Positions 16,623-56,446 of a DNA stretch of 64,000 nucleotides are shown here, piece after piece. Numbering within the stretch: position 1 is the stretch's first letter; each line of letters starts with the position of its first letter. The DNA comes from Candidatus Omnitrophota bacterium (GTDB taxonomy: Bacteria; Omnitrophota; Omnitrophia; Omnitrophales; Aquincolibacteriaceae): positions 22,958 to 86,957 of the forward strand of contig CAISGE010000015.1 of the NCBI GenBank assembly GCA_903884815.1. Reading direction: 5' to 3'. The position numbers and the translations under genes are program-made. The notes below the pieces were generated by a model, which did not search any database, had not been told where the DNA came from, and worked only from the letters and a program-made list of their open reading frames with translations.

Positions 16623-16988
16623 ATGAGCAAGAAAATTTTAATCGTCGAGGATGACAGTGATTTTCAGGATATCTATTCTCTCTTTCTCCGGGGGGAGTCC
16701 TATCAGGTGCTGACGGCAGGTAACGGTCAGGAGGGTCTGGAGGCCCTTGAAAAGGAAACGCCCGATCTGATCATCCTGGACCTTATTATGCCCGTGATGG
16801 ATGGAGAAACCTTTTATGTACGCCTCCGCGAACAGTCCAAGTGGAAATCCATCCCGGTTCTTATCGCCAGCGTGAATGACAAGATGCCTGCCCGCATTAC
16901 AGAACTTGGCGGCATTGCCGGCAATCTCAGGAAGCCTTTCCATATCGATACCCTGCTTGGCAAGATCCATGAGTGTTTGAAAGTGTAG
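16623..16988 (+). CDS. response regulator, stand-alone receiver domain
   Basis: MSKKILIVEDD...DLIILDLIMPVMDG receiver motifs. 121 aa with no output domain. Confidence 0.8.
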   Translation: MSKKILIVEDDSDFQDIYSLFLRGESYQVLTAGNGQEGLEALEKETPDLIILDLIMPVMDGETFYVRLREQSKWKSIPVLIASVNDKMPARITELGGIAGNLRKPFHIDTLLGKIHECLKV

Positions 16989-16995
16989 GGCGAGA

Positions 16996-17066
16996 GGCGT
17001 ACGGAGTACGGCACTACGGCTCACGGGATTTTCGCCGTACACCTTACACCGCACTCCTTACGCGGA
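16996..17066. repeat. HPE variant (GGCGTACG GAGTACG GCACTACG GCTCACG ... CGCCGTACACCTTACACCGCACTCCTTACGCG)
   Basis: Read directly after the response-regulator stop. Confidence 0.65.
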
Positions 17067-17164
17067 TAGACAAATCCCGCGCCCTCGGTTATCATGACTT
17101 CGTGTTTTAATTGTGCGCCTTCCGGAGAGTTCCTTGTCCTATCCCAACTTTGCATTTTAAAAGA

Positions 17165-17391
17165 TAAGGGGTAGTTGGGACGGTCCTGATTTATATTTTA
17201 TTTTTCATAATGGTAATCAGGACAGCCCCAATCACAGCTTCACCTTGATTGATTGGAATTGGGACTGCCCCAATTCCAATTTCGTTAAAATTGATAGGTA
17301 TTGGGACTATCCTTGTCTTTGATTTGTTTCTGGAGGGTGACAAGGATTGCCCCAATTTCCGCTTTGCGGAAATTAATAGGAATTGGGACTA
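17165..17391 (+). promoter_or_regulatory. array of at least 6 ATTGGGAC / GCCCCAAT half-sites forming 3-4 inverted-repeat operators plus other hairpins, upstream of the tandem AsnC-like gene
   Basis: Includes TTGGAATTGGGAC-T-GCCCCAATTCCAA, ATTGGGACTATCCTTGTC...GACAAGGATTGCCCCAAT, ATTTCCGC-TTT-GCGGAAAT, and GGAATTGGGACTATGG at the start codon. Confidence 0.5.
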
Positions 17392-18485
17392 TGGATGAGA
17401 AAGATCGTCTTTTATTGACCCATCTTCAGAGCGGGCTCCCGCTAACGCCCCGGCCTTTTGCCACTTGGGCGGCGAAGCTCGGGACAGACAGCGCCGACCT
17501 GCTGGTGCGCATTCAGCGCCTTAAAAAAGAAGGGACTTTGGGGGGGGTGAAGGCGGTTCTCGACGCGCGCATCTTCCATTACCAAAGCGCTTGGGTTGCG
17601 CTACGGTTTGGCACAGAAGATCTCGCGAGCCGCACAGAAGTCCTTTGGCAGCATCCGGGGGTGACCTACGGCTGCGAGAGGGAGCACGAGTTCAACGTCT
17701 GGCTCTTTATTTCGGCTCCCGAGAATCATGATCTTGAGCTTCATGTCCGTTGCCTTGCAAAGATCTCCGGTGCGGAGAAAGTTCTGTTCCTGCCCGTGCG
17801 GCGTGTGTACAAAGGAACGGATCTTCTCAGTTCTCTGGGCCCCGAAACATTTTCTGAGATGGACGAGCGCTTCGAAAAACGTCAGCCGGGTCATGGGGCG
17901 GAGTTGACGACCGAGGACATCGATATGATACGGCGGCTTCAAGAGCCGTTTCCGCTCACGGATGAACCTTATCAAAAGATCGCTGCGGATCTCGGGATCA
18001 CGGAGTTTCAGGCGATTGAGCAGATGAAGTCTCTTGTCGCGAAAAAATGTCTCAAGAGGATTGGAAGTTTCTTGAAACCTGTTGGGCGGATCGGACAGGA
18101 GCATCAAGCTCCTGCCGAAGCCGTGCTGAAGGATTGGCCTTCAGTGAAAGTCCCGGGAGCCGGGAACCTGGTGGTCTGGCAGATCCCCGAGGAAAAACTG
18201 GAGCGAAGCGGGCCCGAGATCGCCGCATTCCGCGAGGTGATTTACGCGGACCGTCGGCCGGCCTATCCGGAATTCCCGTACTCGCTTTATACGACGATCC
18301 GGGCTGAAACACCCGAGGCCCTTGAATTGATCACAAGACGCATGCAGGACCGGATCGGGAAATGGCCGCACCGGGTGATGGTGACGACCCGGGAGCTTAA
18401 GAAAACCGGGATGAAATACTTTCCGAAAGAATTGGACGCGTGGTGGCAGCAAAACCGGCATATAAATGAGACCGCATTTAACTGA
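17392..18485 (+). CDS. tandem AsnC/Lrp-type HTH domain protein (NirDL/AhbAB-like two-repeat architecture)
   Basis: Two repeats with the D..D..LL..LQ..PL...PF...A..LG pattern: DEKDRLLLTHLQSGLPLTPRPFATWAAKLG, then EDIDMIRRLQEPFPLTDEPYQKIAADLG. Confidence 0.55.
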
Positions 18486-18554
18486 GCGCAACGGTCAACG
18501 CTCAACGTGAAACATTTTTTTAATCGTTGTGCGTTGTGCGTCGTGCGTTGAGCC
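18485..18554. repeat. HPE copy between the AsnC-like gene and thiC
   Basis: GAGCGCAACG GTCAACG CTCAACG TG ... CGTTGTG CGTTGTG CGTCGTG CGTTGAGC. Confidence 0.75.
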
Positions 18555-18570
18555 TGCTTTAAGGAGTATC

Positions 18571-19932
18571 ATGGCTTTTCGAGACGAGTGGTTAGCAAAA
18601 CGAGAAAAAGACACGAACCGTTCGCAGATGCATTATGCCCGGCGGGGGATCGTGACGGAAGAGATGGCTTTTGTGGCGGCCGACGAGAAGCTCTCACCGG
18701 AATTTATCCGCTCCGAGGTTGCGGCGGGGAGGCTCGTGATTTGCGCGAACGTGAATCACCGTGATCTCCGGCCCATGGGGATCGGGATTGGCGTTCGCTG
18801 CAAGATCAACGCGAATCTTGGGAATTCGGCGCTGGGTTCGGACATTCAGGCGGAAGTCGAGAAGGTCGGGCTCGCGGTCCGGTTCGGTGCGGATACAGTC
18901 ATGGATCTTTCGACCGGGAAACAGCTGGATGAGACCCGCGAAGCGATCATTCGCGCGACCATTGTGCCGGTGGGGACGGTGCCGATCTATGAAGCGCTGG
19001 AGCGCGTGAACGGAAAGCCGGAGGCTTTGACCCCCGAGATCATGTTCGAAGTAATCGAGCATCAGGCAAAACAGGGTGTGGATTTCATGACAATCCACGC
19101 TGGGGTGCTCCTGGAACATTTGCCGATGATCGAAACCCGGGTGACGGGCGTCGTGAGCCGGGGCGGGGCAATCCTCGCGAGGTGGTGCAAATTCCATCAG
19201 AAGCAAAATTTTCTTTTCAGCCATTACGATCGTTTGCTTGAGATCTGCAAAAAATACGACGTTACGATCAGCCTCGGGGACGGGATGCGGCCGGGTTGCC
19301 TCGCGGACGCGAGCGACAAGGCTCAGTTCGCGGAGCTTGATGCGCTTGGGGTGCTGACGCTAAAGGCCTGGGAGCAGGACGTGCAGGTGATGGTGGAAGG
19401 TCCGGGGCATGTGCCGATGGACCAGATCCCGATGAATATAGAGCGCCAGATCAAGGTCTGCCACGGAGCGCCTTTTTATGTGCTCGGGCCTCTTGTGACT
19501 GATATTGGAGCCGGCTACGATCACATTACTTCCGCGATCGGTGCTGCGATCGCTGCTCAGGCCGGTGCGGCGATGCTGTGTTACGTGACGCCGTGCGAGC
19601 ATCTGTGTTTGCCGAATCTCGATGATGTGAAGCAAGGCGTGATTGCCTACAAGATCGCAGCGCACGCAGCGGATATTGCGCGGCACCGTCCCGGCGCGCG
19701 CGACCGGGATGACGAAATGGCCCGGGCTCGGTTCGCCTTTGATTGGGAAAAACAGTTTGCTTTGACGCTTGATCCGGAGAATGCGAAAAAAAGGCACGAC
19801 GAAGCGCTTCCCGAGGGCGAGGCAAGGAATGCCGAATACTGTTCTATGTGCGGTGAGGGCTTTTGCGCCATGAATCTTTCGCAATGCCTGACCGATGCCG
19901 GGAAAAAGAAACAGGCTCTGAAGAAAAAATAA
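18571..19932 (+). CDS. thiC: phosphomethylpyrimidine synthase
   Basis: [16 protein letters not shown] and C-terminal [11 protein letters not shown] motifs are diagnostic for ThiC. Confidence 0.9.
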
Positions 19933-19937
19933 CCCCG

Positions 19938-19959
19938 GACACACCGGGTGTGGACAAGG
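19938..19959. repeat. GGACACACCGGGTGTGGACAAGG palindromic motif (copy 1), thiC|ispG
   Basis: Also occurs at 24195 and twice at 33601..33648. Confidence 0.65.
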
Positions 19960-19971
19960 GATGATCGGAAA

Positions 19972-21045
19972 ATGAAAAAACAAAATACGATCCTCAGGAA
20001 AAAAACGCGGGCGGTCAAGGTCGGAAAATTGATCTTGGGGGAGGGTCACCCCATTCGTATCCAGTCCATGACCAAAGTCCACACCAAGGACATTCGCGCG
20101 GTTTTGGAGCAGATCGCGCGGCTGGAGCAAGCGGGTTGCGAGATCGTGCGCTGCGCGTGCCCCGGCGAAGAAGACGTCAAGGCGCTGGGGAAGATCAAGG
20201 CGAAAATCAAGATCCCTCTCGTGGCGGACATTCATTTCAATTACCGGTTCGCCCTGATGGCGATCGATGAAGGTGTGGATAAACTCCGCCTCAATCCCGG
20301 CAATATCGGCGACAAGGATCGCGTGGCCGAAGTCGTGGAAAAAGCAAAGCGTCACCACATCCCGATCCGGATCGGGGTCAATTCCGGCTCGCTTGAAAAA
20401 GATCTGATGGAAAAATACGGGCCCACGCCCGAAGCCTTAGTCGAGAGCGCGCGGCGGCATGTTGCGATCCTTGAGGCGCTGGATTTCCATGACACCGTGA
20501 TCTCGCTCAAGGCGACCGATGTTCCGACCATGATCGAGGCCTATCGTCTCGCGAGCCAAAAATTTGATTATCCTCTTCATCTTGGCGTCACCGAAGCCGG
20601 GACTCTGATGCGGGGCAGTATCTATAACGCGATCGGTGTGGGGACGCTTTTGCAAGAGGGGATCGGTGATACGATCCGCGTGTCACTCACGGCGGATCCG
20701 GTCGAAGAAGTGAGGGTTGCGCGGATGATTCTGGAGTCACTCGACCTTCGCGAAGGCGTGCGCGTCATCTCCTGTCCGACTTGTGGGCGCACCGAGATCG
20801 ATACCGCGAAGCTGGCTCAGGAAGTGGAGGCTCGCGCCATGCGGCTCAAAGGGCCGCTTACGATCGCCGTGATGGGATGCGCGGTCAATGGTCCCGGCGA
20901 AGCCCAGGGTGCGGATTTCGCGATCACCGGCGGCCAGAAAAAGGGCATGATCTACGTCGCCGGGAAACAAGAACGCGTGGTCGACGAAGCGCATCTTGTT
21001 GATGAATTGTTTAAAGAGATCGAGAAAAGACAGGGCAACGGGTAA
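19972..21045 (+). CDS. ispG: 4-hydroxy-3-methylbut-2-enyl diphosphate synthase
   Basis: ISCPTCGRTEID and MGCAVNGPGEA Fe-S motifs. About 357 aa. Confidence 0.9.
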   Translation: MKKQNTILRKKTRAVKVGKLILGEGHPIRIQSMTKVHTKDIRAVLEQIARLEQAGCEIVRCACPGEEDVKALGKIKAKIKIPLVADIHFNYRFALMAIDEGVDKLRLNPGNIGDKDRVAEVVEKAKRHHIPIRIGVNSGSLEKDLMEKYGPTPEALVESARRHVAILEALDFHDTVISLKATDVPTMIEAYRLASQKFDYPLHLGVTEAGTLMRGSIYNAIGVGTLLQEGIGDTIRVSLTADPVEEVRVARMILESLDLREGVRVISCPTCGRTEIDTAKLAQEVEARAMRLKGPLTIAVMGCAVNGPGEAQGADFAITGGQKKGMIYVAGKQERVVDEAHLVDELFKEIEKRQGNG

Positions 21046-21100
21046 CGGGGAATGCAAAACCCGGAATGGCCTTTCGTCCTTCCACGATAGGAATGCTCAA

Positions 21101-22171
21101 ATGGTTACCCTCCAGGATATCCAGCAAAAATTAAAAGCCGGAGAGCGTCTGTCTCTTGAGGACGGGCGCGCGCTTTTTGAAAGCACGGATATCCTCACGA
21201 TCGGCCGGATGGCGCAGGACGTACGGGAGCGTCTGCACGGACGTCGCGCGTTTTATGCTGTGAACCTTCATCTGAATCCCACGAACATTTGTTCCACCCG
21301 CTGCGAATTCTGCGCCTTTTCCCGCGATGCCGGTGCGCTGGATGCTTACGCCTTGACGCTGGACGAGATCGAAAAGAAAGTCCGGACGGCGGTCGAACAA
21401 TTCCAGATCAACGAGGTCCATATCGTCGGCGGTCACAACCCCGCGCTCGGGTTTGACTACTATCTGGAGATGTTGCGCCGGCTAAGGCGTATCGACTCAA
21501 AGATCTTCATCAAAGCCTTCAGCGCGCCGGAGATCGATGATATGGCAAAGCGCGCGGGAATTTCATGGGAGGAAGTTCTGACGCAACTTAAGGGCGCTGG
21601 ATTGAGCGGAATGCCGGGCGGTGGAGCGGAAATTTTTGATCCCGAAGTGCGCGCGAAGCTGTGCCCCGGGAAGATCTCCGGTGAAGAGTGGCTGGGCGTG
21701 CACCGGACCGCACACGGGTTGGGGATCAAAACCAACGCGACTCTGCTTTACGGGCATATCGAAACTGCCGTACATCGTGTGGCCCATCTTTTGAAGTTAC
21801 GGGATCTCCAGGACGAGACCGGTGGGTTTAGCGCCTTTGTGCCGCTTGCCTACCATCCTCAAAACAATGCGCTCAAAGGGGCCCGGGAGACAACCGGTTT
21901 TCTGGATCTAAAAATGATTTCCATTTCGAGGCTTCTTCTTGATAATATCCCTCATATCAAGGCCCACGGATCGGCGACCAATCTCAAATTTATCCAAGCC
22001 GCACTTTCGTTCGGCGCGGATGACATGGGAGGCACCAATCTTCAGGAGCGGGTGATGCATGAAGCGGGGAGCCGTTCGCCGGAGGGATTAGGCGCGGCGG
22101 ACCTTGTTCGGTGTATCCGTGACGCGGGGTACACGCCTTGCCGGGTCGATAGTTCTTATTCAATCGCATAA
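21101..22171 (+). CDS. radical SAM enzyme, MqnE/MqnC/CofH family (futalosine-pathway type)
   Basis: NLHLNPTNICSTRCEFCAFSR CxxxCxxC block typical of the MqnC/MqnE/CofH family. Confidence 0.7.
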   Translation: MVTLQDIQQKLKAGERLSLEDGRALFESTDILTIGRMAQDVRERLHGRRAFYAVNLHLNPTNICSTRCEFCAFSRDAGALDAYALTLDEIEKKVRTAVEQFQINEVHIVGGHNPALGFDYYLEMLRRLRRIDSKIFIKAFSAPEIDDMAKRAGISWEEVLTQLKGAGLSGMPGGGAEIFDPEVRAKLCPGKISGEEWLGVHRTAHGLGIKTNATLLYGHIETAVHRVAHLLKLRDLQDETGGFSAFVPLAYHPQNNALKGARETTGFLDLKMISISRLLLDNIPHIKAHGSATNLKFIQAALSFGADDMGGTNLQERVMHEAGSRSPEGLGAADLVRCIRDAGYTPCRVDSSYSIA

Positions 22172-55311: not shown

Positions 55312-55959
55312 ATGCAAGAGATCGAGCGGGAACTGATCGTCAGGGCGGGGGAGGGGGACGCGGGAGCATTCCGGGAGATTTACCGGCGGGCGGCTGGGTA
55401 TGTCTACACCTTGGCGTACCGGGTCGTGAATACCAAGCCTGACGCGGAGGAAGTGACGCAAGATGTGTTCCTGAAGATACACCGGAGTCTTGGTTCTTTC
55501 AAGTTTGAGGCAGCGTTCAAAACCTGGCTTTACCGGATTACGCTCAATACGGCGCTGAATCACGCGAAGAAAAGAAGTCGCGTGACGCAACGCGAAGTCG
55601 AAGAAGTGTTTGAGGATCCGGCTACCGTGACCCAAGCCGATGCCAGGAAAGGTCTCGAAGCGGATGATACGGGGGTGCAATTGAAGGCTCTGCTTGATCA
55701 GCTGAATCCCGACCAAAGGGCTTGCATTGTTTCGCGGGAGATCGAAGGGATGGATTATCAGGGGATTGCCCGAAGTCTTGGGATCAACATCAATACGGTC
55801 CGTTCGAGGCTCAAAAGAGCCCGCGAGACCTTGATGGCCCTCGGGCAGACCCAATTCTCCATCGAAAAAAATGAAGGTCAATTGGGTCAGCCCTGGCAAC
55901 CTTCAGTGAAAAGAAGAGAGAAGCCAGGACAAAAGGAGGTAGTGAGTCATGGACTGTAA
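55312..55959 (+). CDS. ECF (RpoE-like) sigma-70 family sigma factor
   Basis: Region 2 DVTQDVFLKIHRSLGSF...WLYRITLN. Region 4 HTH. 215 aa. Confidence 0.85.
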   Translation: MQEIERELIVRAGEGDAGAFREIYRRAAGYVYTLAYRVVNTKPDAEEVTQDVFLKIHRSLGSFKFEAAFKTWLYRITLNTALNHAKKRSRVTQREVEEVFEDPATVTQADARKGLEADDTGVQLKALLDQLNPDQRACIVSREIEGMDYQGIARSLGININTVRSRLKRARETLMALGQTQFSIEKNEGQLGQPWQPSVKRREKPGQKEVVSHGL

Positions 55960-56446
55960 AAAATTGAAGGACCGTCTTTTGACGGATTATCTCGACAAGG
56001 AGCTTGGAGCGATTGAGCGCGCGAGTGTGGACGGACACCTGGCCGGATGCTCGGCGTGCCGGGGGTTCTTTCGGAATCTTCAAGAGAGTGCTGTTGCGCC
56101 GTTTAAAGGGGTTCCAGAGATCCAACCGGATGAGATCGTTTGGCGCCGCATCCAAGAACAGATTGCGGCGGAAAGTGCGCATGCTTCGGGTGGATTTTGG
56201 GGACTTGTGGATCTTTTAGTATCCCGCTTTCCGTTACCCGTTCCCATGATGCGTGTGGCTTTCGTTACAGCGCTTGTTCTGGTGACTGTGGTGCTCGCGA
56301 GGTGGCCGTCCGGGTCTATACATCCGGCTTATGCCTACGTGGAAGAGCAGATGACGTTCATGAACGAATTGGGTGCCGGCAATACCGAGCTCATGAACGG
56401 AGAGCTGAAGGATTACGAGACTACTTATGAAGAAATAGGCCGTTAA
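55949..56446 (+). CDS. anti-sigma factor (ZAS-type, single TM)
   Basis: HLAGCSACRGFF zinc-binding anti-sigma motif. TM at ~aa 85-105. 11-nt overlap with the sigma gene. Confidence 0.7.
   Translation: MDCKKLKDRLLTDYLDKELGAIERASVDGHLAGCSACRGFFRNLQESAVAPFKGVPEIQPDEIVWRRIQEQIAAESAHASGGFWGLVDLLVSRFPLPVPMMRVAFVTALVLVTVVLARWPSGSIHPAYAYVEEQMTFMNELGAGNTELMNGELKDYETTYEEIGR

Follow-up and report, generated by a model that had tools for sequence, protein, structure and literature searches.

The repetitive extragenic palindromes (REP) and bacterial interspersed mosaic elements (BIME) of Enterobacteria and the REPINs of Pseudomonas are short imperfect palindromes, mostly intergenic, that are present in many copies, are often transcribed within operons, and are found alone, paired or as regular arrays separated by fixed linkers. 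Over long times, they are passed on vertically at orthologous sites, and their stem sequences vary while pairing is kept. The BOX elements of pneumococci, with the organization boxA-boxB(n)-boxC, consist of modules of about 45-60 nucleotides (nt), one type of which is amplified in tandem; these elements lie near gene starts and ends and can alter the expression of their neighbours. The Correia/NEMIS elements of Neisseria are miniature inverted-repeat transposable elements (MITEs), small, non-autonomous, flanked by terminal inverted repeats and co-transcribed with nearby genes, to which they sometimes supply promoters or processing sites. Palindromic sites are also repeated in the operator arrays of Lrp/AsnC regulators, such as the Escherichia coli Lrp sites and the Ss-LrpB boxes, where several partly palindromic sites are regularly spaced and, in the case of Lrp, follow an AT-rich 15-bp consensus. 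Here, we analyze a dense cluster of inverted repeats that immediately precedes a gene for an AhbAB/NirDL-like protein with two AsnC-type helix-turn-helix (HTH) domains in a Candidatus Omnitrophota bacterium (assembly GCA_903884815.1, contig CAISGE010000015.1). The stretch analyzed, referred to below as the window, comprises 64,000 nt (64 kb), and all positions are given in its numbering.

We conclude, with a probability of roughly 85%, that the cluster comprises six tandem modules of a hairpin-repeat family interspersed in Omnitrophota genomes, and that it does not serve the adjacent protein as an operator array. The family is of the REP/BIME/BOX/MITE kind, shares with REP/BIME and REPINs all the features listed above, and is apparently undescribed for Omnitrophota. 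No description of it was found in Rfam or in the literature searched on repeats of Omnitrophota/Omnitrophica (REP, MITE, REPIN, REP-associated tyrosine transposase (RAYT), palindromic), and a survey of the phylum (PMC10066038) makes no mention of repeats.

The cluster consists of four copies of (A/G)TTGGGAC, namely ATTGGGAC at 17258, 17300 and 17382 and the variant GTTGGGAC at 17174, and three copies of GCCCCAAT, at 17225, 17267 and 17349, all on the + strand and in strict alternation within 215 bp. The original prediction, which had been made from the sequence alone, thus correctly announced six or more copies of the 8-mer. The near-perfect 27-nt palindrome that it described is likewise present, with arms (17252-17263 and 17269-17280) complementary at 12 of 12 positions, as are its further hairpins, GTCCTGATT/AATCAGGAC at 17183-17191 and 17215-17223, and AATTTCCGC-TTT-GCGGAAATT at 17354-17374. 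The last half-site had been thought to overlap the start codon; it abuts it without overlap, because ATTGGGAC ends at 17389 and a single T separates it from the ATG at 17391. The pairing of GCCCCAAT with ATTGGGAC is inexact, with a constant A.C mismatch on the + strand that is G.U on the - strand. Across the window, the 8-mers are not over-represented: TTGGGRC has 17 matches on both strands versus 21.6 expected from shuffled sequences. Seven of these 17 fall in 17175-17389, where the expectation is about 0.06, and the clustering alone is far beyond chance.

Three or four palindromic operators had been proposed, but the natural parse of the cluster is into six head-to-tail hairpin modules of about 42 nt, in the order H0, H1, U1, U2, H2, U3. 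The supposed operators are the junctions between modules, where the 3' arm of one meets the 5' arm of the next; the 27-nt palindrome is formed by U2 together with the 3' arm of U1. The array has the appearance of inverted repeats because every module is itself a hairpin. In modules of the H type, a 9-bp stem, variable in sequence, encloses a T-rich loop of about 23 nt, which mostly ends in (A/G)TGGT; those of the U type consist of GCCCCAAT, a small inner hairpin and ATTGATARGNATTGGGAC. All six lie on the + strand. H0 (17141-17181) has the stem TCCCAACT/AGTTGGGA and a 23-nt T-rich loop ending in GGGGTA, and H1 (17182-17224) the stem GTCCTGATT/AATCAGGAC and a 23-nt T-rich loop ending in AATGGT. 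U1 (17225-17266) reads GCCCCAAT-N25-ATTGGGAC-T and belongs to a subtype, CTCAGC..TTCGATTGATTGG, that also occurs at other loci (L035, L003, L056, L097, L115 and L120). U2 (17267-17307) reads GCCCCAAT-N25-ATTGGGAC with the inner stem CAATTT/AAATTG and has orthologous copies in L035, L003, L042 and L004. The stem of H2 (17308-17348), ATCCTTGTC/GACAAGGAT, is the commonest H stem of the family, and this module has orthologues in L042, L043 and L047. U3 (17349-17390), with the inner stem AATTTCCGC/GCGGAAATT, contains a Shine-Dalgarno (SD)-like AGGA at 17378-17381, and its 3' arm ends 1 nt before the ATG.

The family is widely dispersed. A scan of metagenome contigs for GCCCCAAT-N25-ATTGGGACT returned at least 118 stretches, and 80 loci were examined; they list 94 matches, about 90 of which share the full architecture of the usual dispersed unit, H+U, of about 84 nt. 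Each U among these listed copies follows either an H hairpin or a further U. A covariance model (R1), based exclusively on dispersed copies apart from a single copy of the window, matches the window at 17179-17266 (H1 and U1, 89.4 bits), 17305-17390 (H2 and U3, 91.6 bits) and, far from the array, 55847-55934; U2 (17270-17304, 27.4 bits) gives a lower-scoring match and H0 (17144-17178) a weak one. The same model locates about 115 copies in the metagenome loci listed (491 kb in total), with up to 3-4 separate sites per contig of 10-14 kb, and seven sites away from the gene in loci from Omnitrophota metagenome-assembled genomes (MAGs; L003, L005, L008, L010, L014 and L023). It finds no copies in the non-Omnitrophota loci searched, and in viral contigs the U pattern has one match, in unrelated sequence without the conserved interior of the module.

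These sites lie beside unrelated housekeeping genes. The AhbAB-like protein is encoded at one of the 80 loci listed (L047), and the 118 open reading frames (ORFs) that flank the repeats match 144 Pfam families, for example ATP synthase, GTPases, ClpB, trigger factor and PRPP synthetase. The orientation relative to flanking genes is neutral (12 co-directional sense, 11 antisense, 5 divergent and 4 convergent), and 77 of 88 arrays lie outside long ORFs, with modules also found inside operons and downstream of genes. In two metagenome loci (L056, 1532-1829, and L116, 3510-3807), arrays of the form H-U1-U2-(H-U2)x2 include three 84-nt H+U2 periods that differ by single bases, which points to local and recent tandem duplication. 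Stem-loops with conserved pairing, and many dispersed copies beside unrelated genes in metagenome and MAG loci and at two sites of the window, are hallmarks of REP/BIME repeats.

The variable parts of the modules are conserved as base pairs and not as sequence. In an alignment of 82 H+U units from the listed metagenome loci, 89.9% of cells are paired, and at 13 of 22 pairs, 299 cells are changed on both sides; the observed score was reached by none of 500 shuffles, and all slid controls collapsed. Paired cells amount to 94% in the 9-bp H stem and 87% in the 5-bp inner stem of U. The outer U stem and the 8-mers were fixed by the search pattern and are uninformative in the metagenome copies. The same kind of change is seen between orthologous modules: H1 has the stem GTCCTGATT/AATCAGGAC in the window versus GCCCTGATT/AATCAGGGC in L035, a compensatory change, and H0 has CCCAAC/GTTGGG versus CCAAAC/GTTTGG (ATCCAAAC/GTTTGGAC in L035), with both sides of the stem changed.

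Comparison of orthologous loci reveals filled and empty sites. The best match to the AhbAB-like protein among genome representatives has 64% identity, and most orthologous operons, with the promoter intact, have no array. Among the upstream regions of 20 or more orthologues compared, those without repeats have the promoter and a leader of about 55 nt that runs straight into the ATG (...AGCTCCT-ATGGATGAAAAA or ...CCTTCCGGAGGTCCTTTAAAACAGCTCCT-ATGGATGAAAAA). Judging from this comparison, the array appears to be an insertion of about 250 nt within the 5' untranslated region (UTR), with the left end at ...TCCTA|TCCCAAC and the right end at ...GGGACTA|TGG; the filled site reads ...TCCTA[TCCCAAC...TTGGGA]CTATGGATG and the empty one ...TCCTATGGATG. 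In the protein tree, the array-bearing loci (window, L035, L042/L047, L003 and L004) form one clade and carry different subsets of the six modules: H0 H1 U1 U2 in L035 (72% protein identity), H0 U2 H2 U3 in L042/L043/L047 (69%), U1 U2 in L003 (63%), and H0 plus others in L004 (60%). These relatives keep GCCCCAA at about -42 and TTGGGAC at -8. Within the same clade, L039 (72%) has no array and a shortened leader, which is consistent with deletion of the array. Three contigs that encode an identical protein are also identical in the 421 bp upstream and hence uninformative on strain variation.

The ends of the units show a further regularity. Among the metagenome loci (L045-L124), the first base of the H stem agrees with the base that follows GGGACT (42 A/A, 16 G/G and 4 discordant; p = 2e-11), so that H+U units are flanked by CTR...CTR. 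At the ahbAB-like locus, the A of the start codon comes from the right-hand CTA, and CTA occurs once in empty orthologous sites. The flanking CTR base is, however, paired within the hairpin stem, where its partner covaries with it. The CTR...CTR pair could therefore be a 3-bp target duplication or a pair of cleavage sites, or equally lineage-linked sequence of the element itself.

The only sigma-70-like promoter match in 16900-18650 is the sequence TAGACA-N17-TATCAT at 17067-17095 (+), about 40-295 nt upstream of the array. It is followed by the ancestral short leader (17096-17140, +), which contains a block, CCTTCCGGAG at 17118-17127, that is conserved in the upstream regions of orthologues. 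The promoter block, (A/T)(A/G)GACAAATCC..CTCGGTTATCATG, spacer included, is found in nearly all orthologous loci across Omnitrophota, and the leader sequence CCTTCCGGAGG that follows it is likewise conserved before orthologous genes. The two together (17067-17130) are conserved at the nucleotide level among L003-L020 and L035-L043, where the proteins share only 50-70% identity. This block looks like a better candidate for a regulatory site than the repeats, possibly for the HTH protein itself.

These results bear directly on the cooperative, Lrp-like autoregulation that had been suggested for the locus, in which the tandem AsnC/Lrp-type protein would bind the ATTGGGAC-N-GCCCCAAT palindromes cooperatively and repress its own operon. 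Several features speak for such an arrangement: the protein has two AsnC-type HTH domains and lacks the His and Tyr of both of its HxYxR motifs (see below), which makes a non-enzymatic role conceivable; a NirL homologue has been reported to bind DNA, as cited in PMC4145669; and the half-sites are about 42 and 84 bp apart, that is, by whole helical turns. As in the known Lrp/AsnC arrays, spaced, partly palindromic sites stand before a gene for an AsnC-type HTH protein. This explanation nevertheless seems very improbable to us. The sites are not promoter-specific, as the motif family is found at some 90 unrelated places among the matches listed and at a second site of the window; they are not conserved in orthologues, most of which have the same protein subfamily and promoter without the motif; they lie downstream of the sole promoter-like site; they are unlike the Lrp consensus of 15 bp, which is AT-rich; and their variable stems are conserved as pairs, for which protein-DNA recognition has no need. 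One outcome considered for the motif was that it might occur nowhere else. The opposite was found, and such wide occurrence argues against operators, not for them.

Nested miniature inverted repeats inserted in a hot spot had been offered as the alternative, and this idea comes closer. A dispersed, modular hairpin-repeat family is indeed present; the modules are, however, in tandem and not nested, and neither a transposase nor a clear target-site duplication has been shown. Other lineages carry unrelated insertions in the leader of this operon (L006, 2600-2975; L012, 5700-6000; L030, 5700-6000; L035, 1790-1900), and in L012 palindromes of the GTGACAGTCACTTTGGGTGACTGTTAC type lie upstream of the promoter as well as within the leader. 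The operon leader appears to be a general hot spot for repeat insertion.

The array could also have evolved for this operon as a dedicated leader RNA with a cis-regulatory role, for instance as a thermometer, a riboswitch-like element or a leader that binds a protein. It would act on the sense strand by occluding and releasing the ribosome-binding site. The leader that includes the array is predicted to fold with -102 kcal/mol (z = -4.0) within the predicted 5' UTR, the last hairpin carries AGGA and ends at -2, and its position is kept in relatives. An alternative pairing is available too, in which GCCCCAATTCCAAT (17267-17280) pairs with either 17252-17265 or 17376-17389, the latter covering the SD-like AGGA. 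Furthermore, thiC, which follows the ahbAB-like gene after a gap of about 75 nt (18486-18561), has no thiamine pyrophosphate (TPP) riboswitch at Rfam gathering scores. As an account of the array as a whole, a leader RNA of this kind is decidedly unlikely, given that modules are equally often antisense to flanking genes, inside operons or downstream of genes, that most orthologues do without the array, and that the number and order of modules vary freely among close relatives. Rfam has no match in the entire window at gathering scores, and a search of 16950-18600 at E <= 1 gave only chance-level matches. The neutral orientation to genes rules out a sense-strand riboregulator as the origin of the array; the favourable observations fit secondary co-option of a repeat, and secondary use at the ahbAB-like locus is possible.

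A third explanation, compatible with a repeat family, is that the hairpins are dispersed sites for a global DNA- or RNA-binding protein (nucleoid-associated, IHF/gyrase-like or Lrp-like), which would recognize the arms GCCCCAAT/ATTGGGAC, and that the family is kept because the host uses it. In its favour, the 8-mers and their A.C (G.U) asymmetry are kept, despite variable inner stems, in all three such hairpins of the array as well as in relatives whose proteins are 60-72% identical. Nothing, however, identifies such a protein, and the arms themselves do vary, to ATCCCAAC/GTTGGGAT in H0-type modules and to GACCCAAT/ATTGGGTC in the second copy of the window. These changes in the arms are compensatory, which argues for pairing rather than a fixed protein site, and we regard this explanation as unlikely.

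Several observations count against our own conclusion that the array is a set of dispersed repeat modules. The exact position of the last module at the ATG is kept in orthologues of 60-72% protein identity, which could reflect a locus-specific function beyond that of a passive repeat, and a trans-acting protein may recognize the invariant GCCCCAAT/ATTGGGAC arms. No transposase or recombinase is among the 25 most frequent Pfam families of the 118 flanking ORFs, and the mobility of the family is inferred from its dispersal and from filled versus empty orthologous sites. The window contains only two repeat sites, a count that covers this 64-kb part of the source genome, and most of the metagenome loci come without taxon assignment.

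With these reservations, the history of the locus as a repeat array was probably as follows. Units of the family multiply locally via tandem duplication and are lost via deletion between repeated ends. In the ancestor of a single subclade, the array would have been inserted into the 5' leader, with its insertion point exactly at the start-codon junction CTA|TG, and it would have been reshuffled after entry. Transcribed as part of the ahbAB-like-thiC-ispG-mqnE operon, it would add about 250 nt to the 5' UTR and fold strongly. By analogy with REP/BIME and BOX, its hairpins may modulate mRNA stability or translation. The last U module would now supply the ribosome-binding region: in its predicted fold, the AGGA (-13..-10) sits unpaired in a bulge and the terminal stem extends to -2, and initiation may depend on opening of the stem.

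The position of U3 is not unique to this operon. Nine non-redundant U copies end in ...GGGACT directly before the ATG of a long ORF, in front of five independent genes that encode the AhbAB-like protein, a Usp-domain protein, a GT2 glycosyltransferase, a lipid A acyltransferase and Mfd. An AGG at -13..-11 is present in each of the nine, compared with 19 of 101 other copies, and when only independent genes are counted the probability of this association by chance is about 2e-4. This suggests that ATG-abutting U copies have been co-opted as ribosome-binding regions, and makes the family a candidate example of repeats recruited as ribosome-binding leaders. A more ambitious proposal combines two claims: that the U module is a portable cassette for translation initiation or its control, and, independently of this, that the AhbAB-like protein, with its YxCxR and YxDxR motifs and its fixed place in an operon with three Fe-S enzymes, may have acquired a new function, be it in regulation, as a chaperone or in the decarboxylation of a different substrate. 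A hairpin-recognizing, possibly single-strand mechanism (RAYT/IS200-like) that targets CTR would set the 3' end of the module at CTA|TG, and the host would use the AGG bulge and terminal stem as a ribosome-binding region in at least five unrelated genes, including the ahbAB-like operon. We consider the two claims jointly to be conceivable but doubtful.

In comparison with the known repeat classes, the family is close to several and identical to none. BIMEs and REPINs alternate in orientation, whereas the modules of the array share one strand, head to tail. Unlike REP/BIME and REPINs, the family has long (about 23 nt), T-rich loops that are not G+C-rich, and it lacks a universal tag, whether GTAG or CGTC; GTAG is confined to those H subtypes whose 3' stem starts with AG. 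No RAYT gene, such as accompanies the REPINs of Pseudomonas, was found in a limited search of flanking ORFs. With BOX, the family shares the modular build, the variable tandem number of one module type, the location near gene starts and ends, and stable folds, but there is no sequence similarity and the phylum is different. The third module type of the family, AGYCCCATTAACC...GGAGAATGGGAC, does not establish a fixed A-B-C order with H and U either. This type, often 3' of U, has the form AGYCCCATTAACCTTT..(T-rich)..GATGGAGAATGGGACTTG with GGAG in the hairpin loop at eight loci (L051, L053, L062, L067, L076, L080, L103 and L124). Like the Correia/NEMIS MITEs, the family has inverted-repeat ends (GCCCCAAT...ATTGGGAC in U and the 9-bp inverted arms in H), filled and empty orthologous sites, and CTR flanks that could be a short target duplication. 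In contrast to MITEs, the flanking CTR covaries within the stem and may be sequence of the element, and the arrays grow by tandem duplication, not by nested insertion. We know of no parent insertion sequence with the same ends.

The array offers a tempting but wrong annotation, Lrp-type autoregulation via palindromic operators, which the present analysis removes. The analysis also documents an abundant, modular hairpin-repeat family that is useful as a marker for binning and strain typing; the phylum is uncultivated, and frequent repeats of this sort had not been expected in its small genomes.

The protein downstream deserves separate comment. The gene (17391-18485, +) encodes 364 amino acids, a fused AhbA-AhbB/NirDL-like protein with two NirdL-like_HTH (PF22451) and two AsnC_trans_reg2 (PF17805) domains, in agreement with the original prediction of two AsnC-like HTH repeats in one chain, as in NirDL and AhbAB. 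Its NCBIfam matches are barely above threshold: AhbA in the N-terminal half (143 bits; cut-off 140) and AhbB in the C-terminal half (134.6 bits; cut-off 125). It aligns over the full length with NirDL (PDB 4CH7) and shares with it the fused two-repeat architecture. In siroheme decarboxylases (AhbA/AhbB structures: PDB 4CZD/4UN1), each half contains an HxYxR motif; His115 of AhbA ligates the iron, His98, Tyr100 and Arg102 of AhbB have been proposed to be catalytic, and the R102A variant is inactive (PMC4145669). In the window protein, the motifs are replaced by Y93-G-C95-E-R97 and Y285-A-D287-R-R289, in which the Arg alone is kept (R97 and R289); the replaced positions align with the iron ligand His115 of AhbA and with His98 and Tyr100 of AhbB. 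It had been asked whether all catalytic residues of AhbA/AhbB are retained, and the His and Tyr are missing in both halves. The same replacement extends to every Omnitrophota orthologue of about 40% identity or more, whereas HxYxR is retained in homologues that are more distant. The protein thus has an AhbAB-like fold without the defining catalytic feature and is probably not a canonical siroheme decarboxylase; the conserved subfamily as a whole probably should not carry that annotation.

The genomic context is also unlike that of the known enzymes. The gene is the first of an operon that continues with thiC, ispG and an mqnE-like radical S-adenosylmethionine (SAM) gene, as had been predicted, and not with ahbC/ahbD or nir genes. 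The operon neighbours and individual scans of 26 window proteins revealed no ahbC, ahbD or nir gene, and a batch NCBIfam scan of 49 window ORFs returned, among the 25 most frequent families, complex I and pseudopilin only. The order ahbAB-like, thiC, ispG, mqnE-like (17391-22171) is kept in every Omnitrophota relative examined (L001, L035, L039, L042 and L043). ThiC, IspG and the MqnE-like protein are three Fe-S enzymes.

Reading the array as a CRISPR was considered and rejected: there are no spacers and no cas genes, and the match to CRISPR-DR58 scores 22 bits against a threshold of 38 (E = 0.22).

The second repeat copy in the window (55847-55934, -; R1 43.8 bits, E = 2.4e-9) consists of an H hairpin and a variant second hairpin (GACCCAAT...ATTGGGTC), which belongs to the third module type. 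Its presence argues against modules that are confined to the ahbAB-like operon. It lies antisense between an extracytoplasmic function (ECF) sigma factor gene (ORF 55312-55959) and a zf-HC2 anti-sigma gene (55949-56446), and the sigma ORF reads through it: Sigma70 region 4 ends at residue 174 of 215, and the last ~37 codons are repeat-derived. This tail may be a genuine C-terminal extension or else a trap for annotation, and it illustrates how the family causes spurious ORFs and errors in gene starts.

Long imperfect hairpins of a different build are found at 16985-17061, after the response-regulator gene, and at 18486-18545, after the ahbAB-like gene. Their arms are made of 3-4 tandem 7-8-mers, for example CGTACGG AGTACGG CACTACGG ... 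CCGTACA CCTTACA, and GCGCAACG GTCAACG CTCAACG ... CGTTGTG CGTTGTG CGTCGTG. These hairpins may be terminators of unusual build. Relatives (L003, L004, L005, L023 and L035) have hairpins of the same style but different sequence in the same places.

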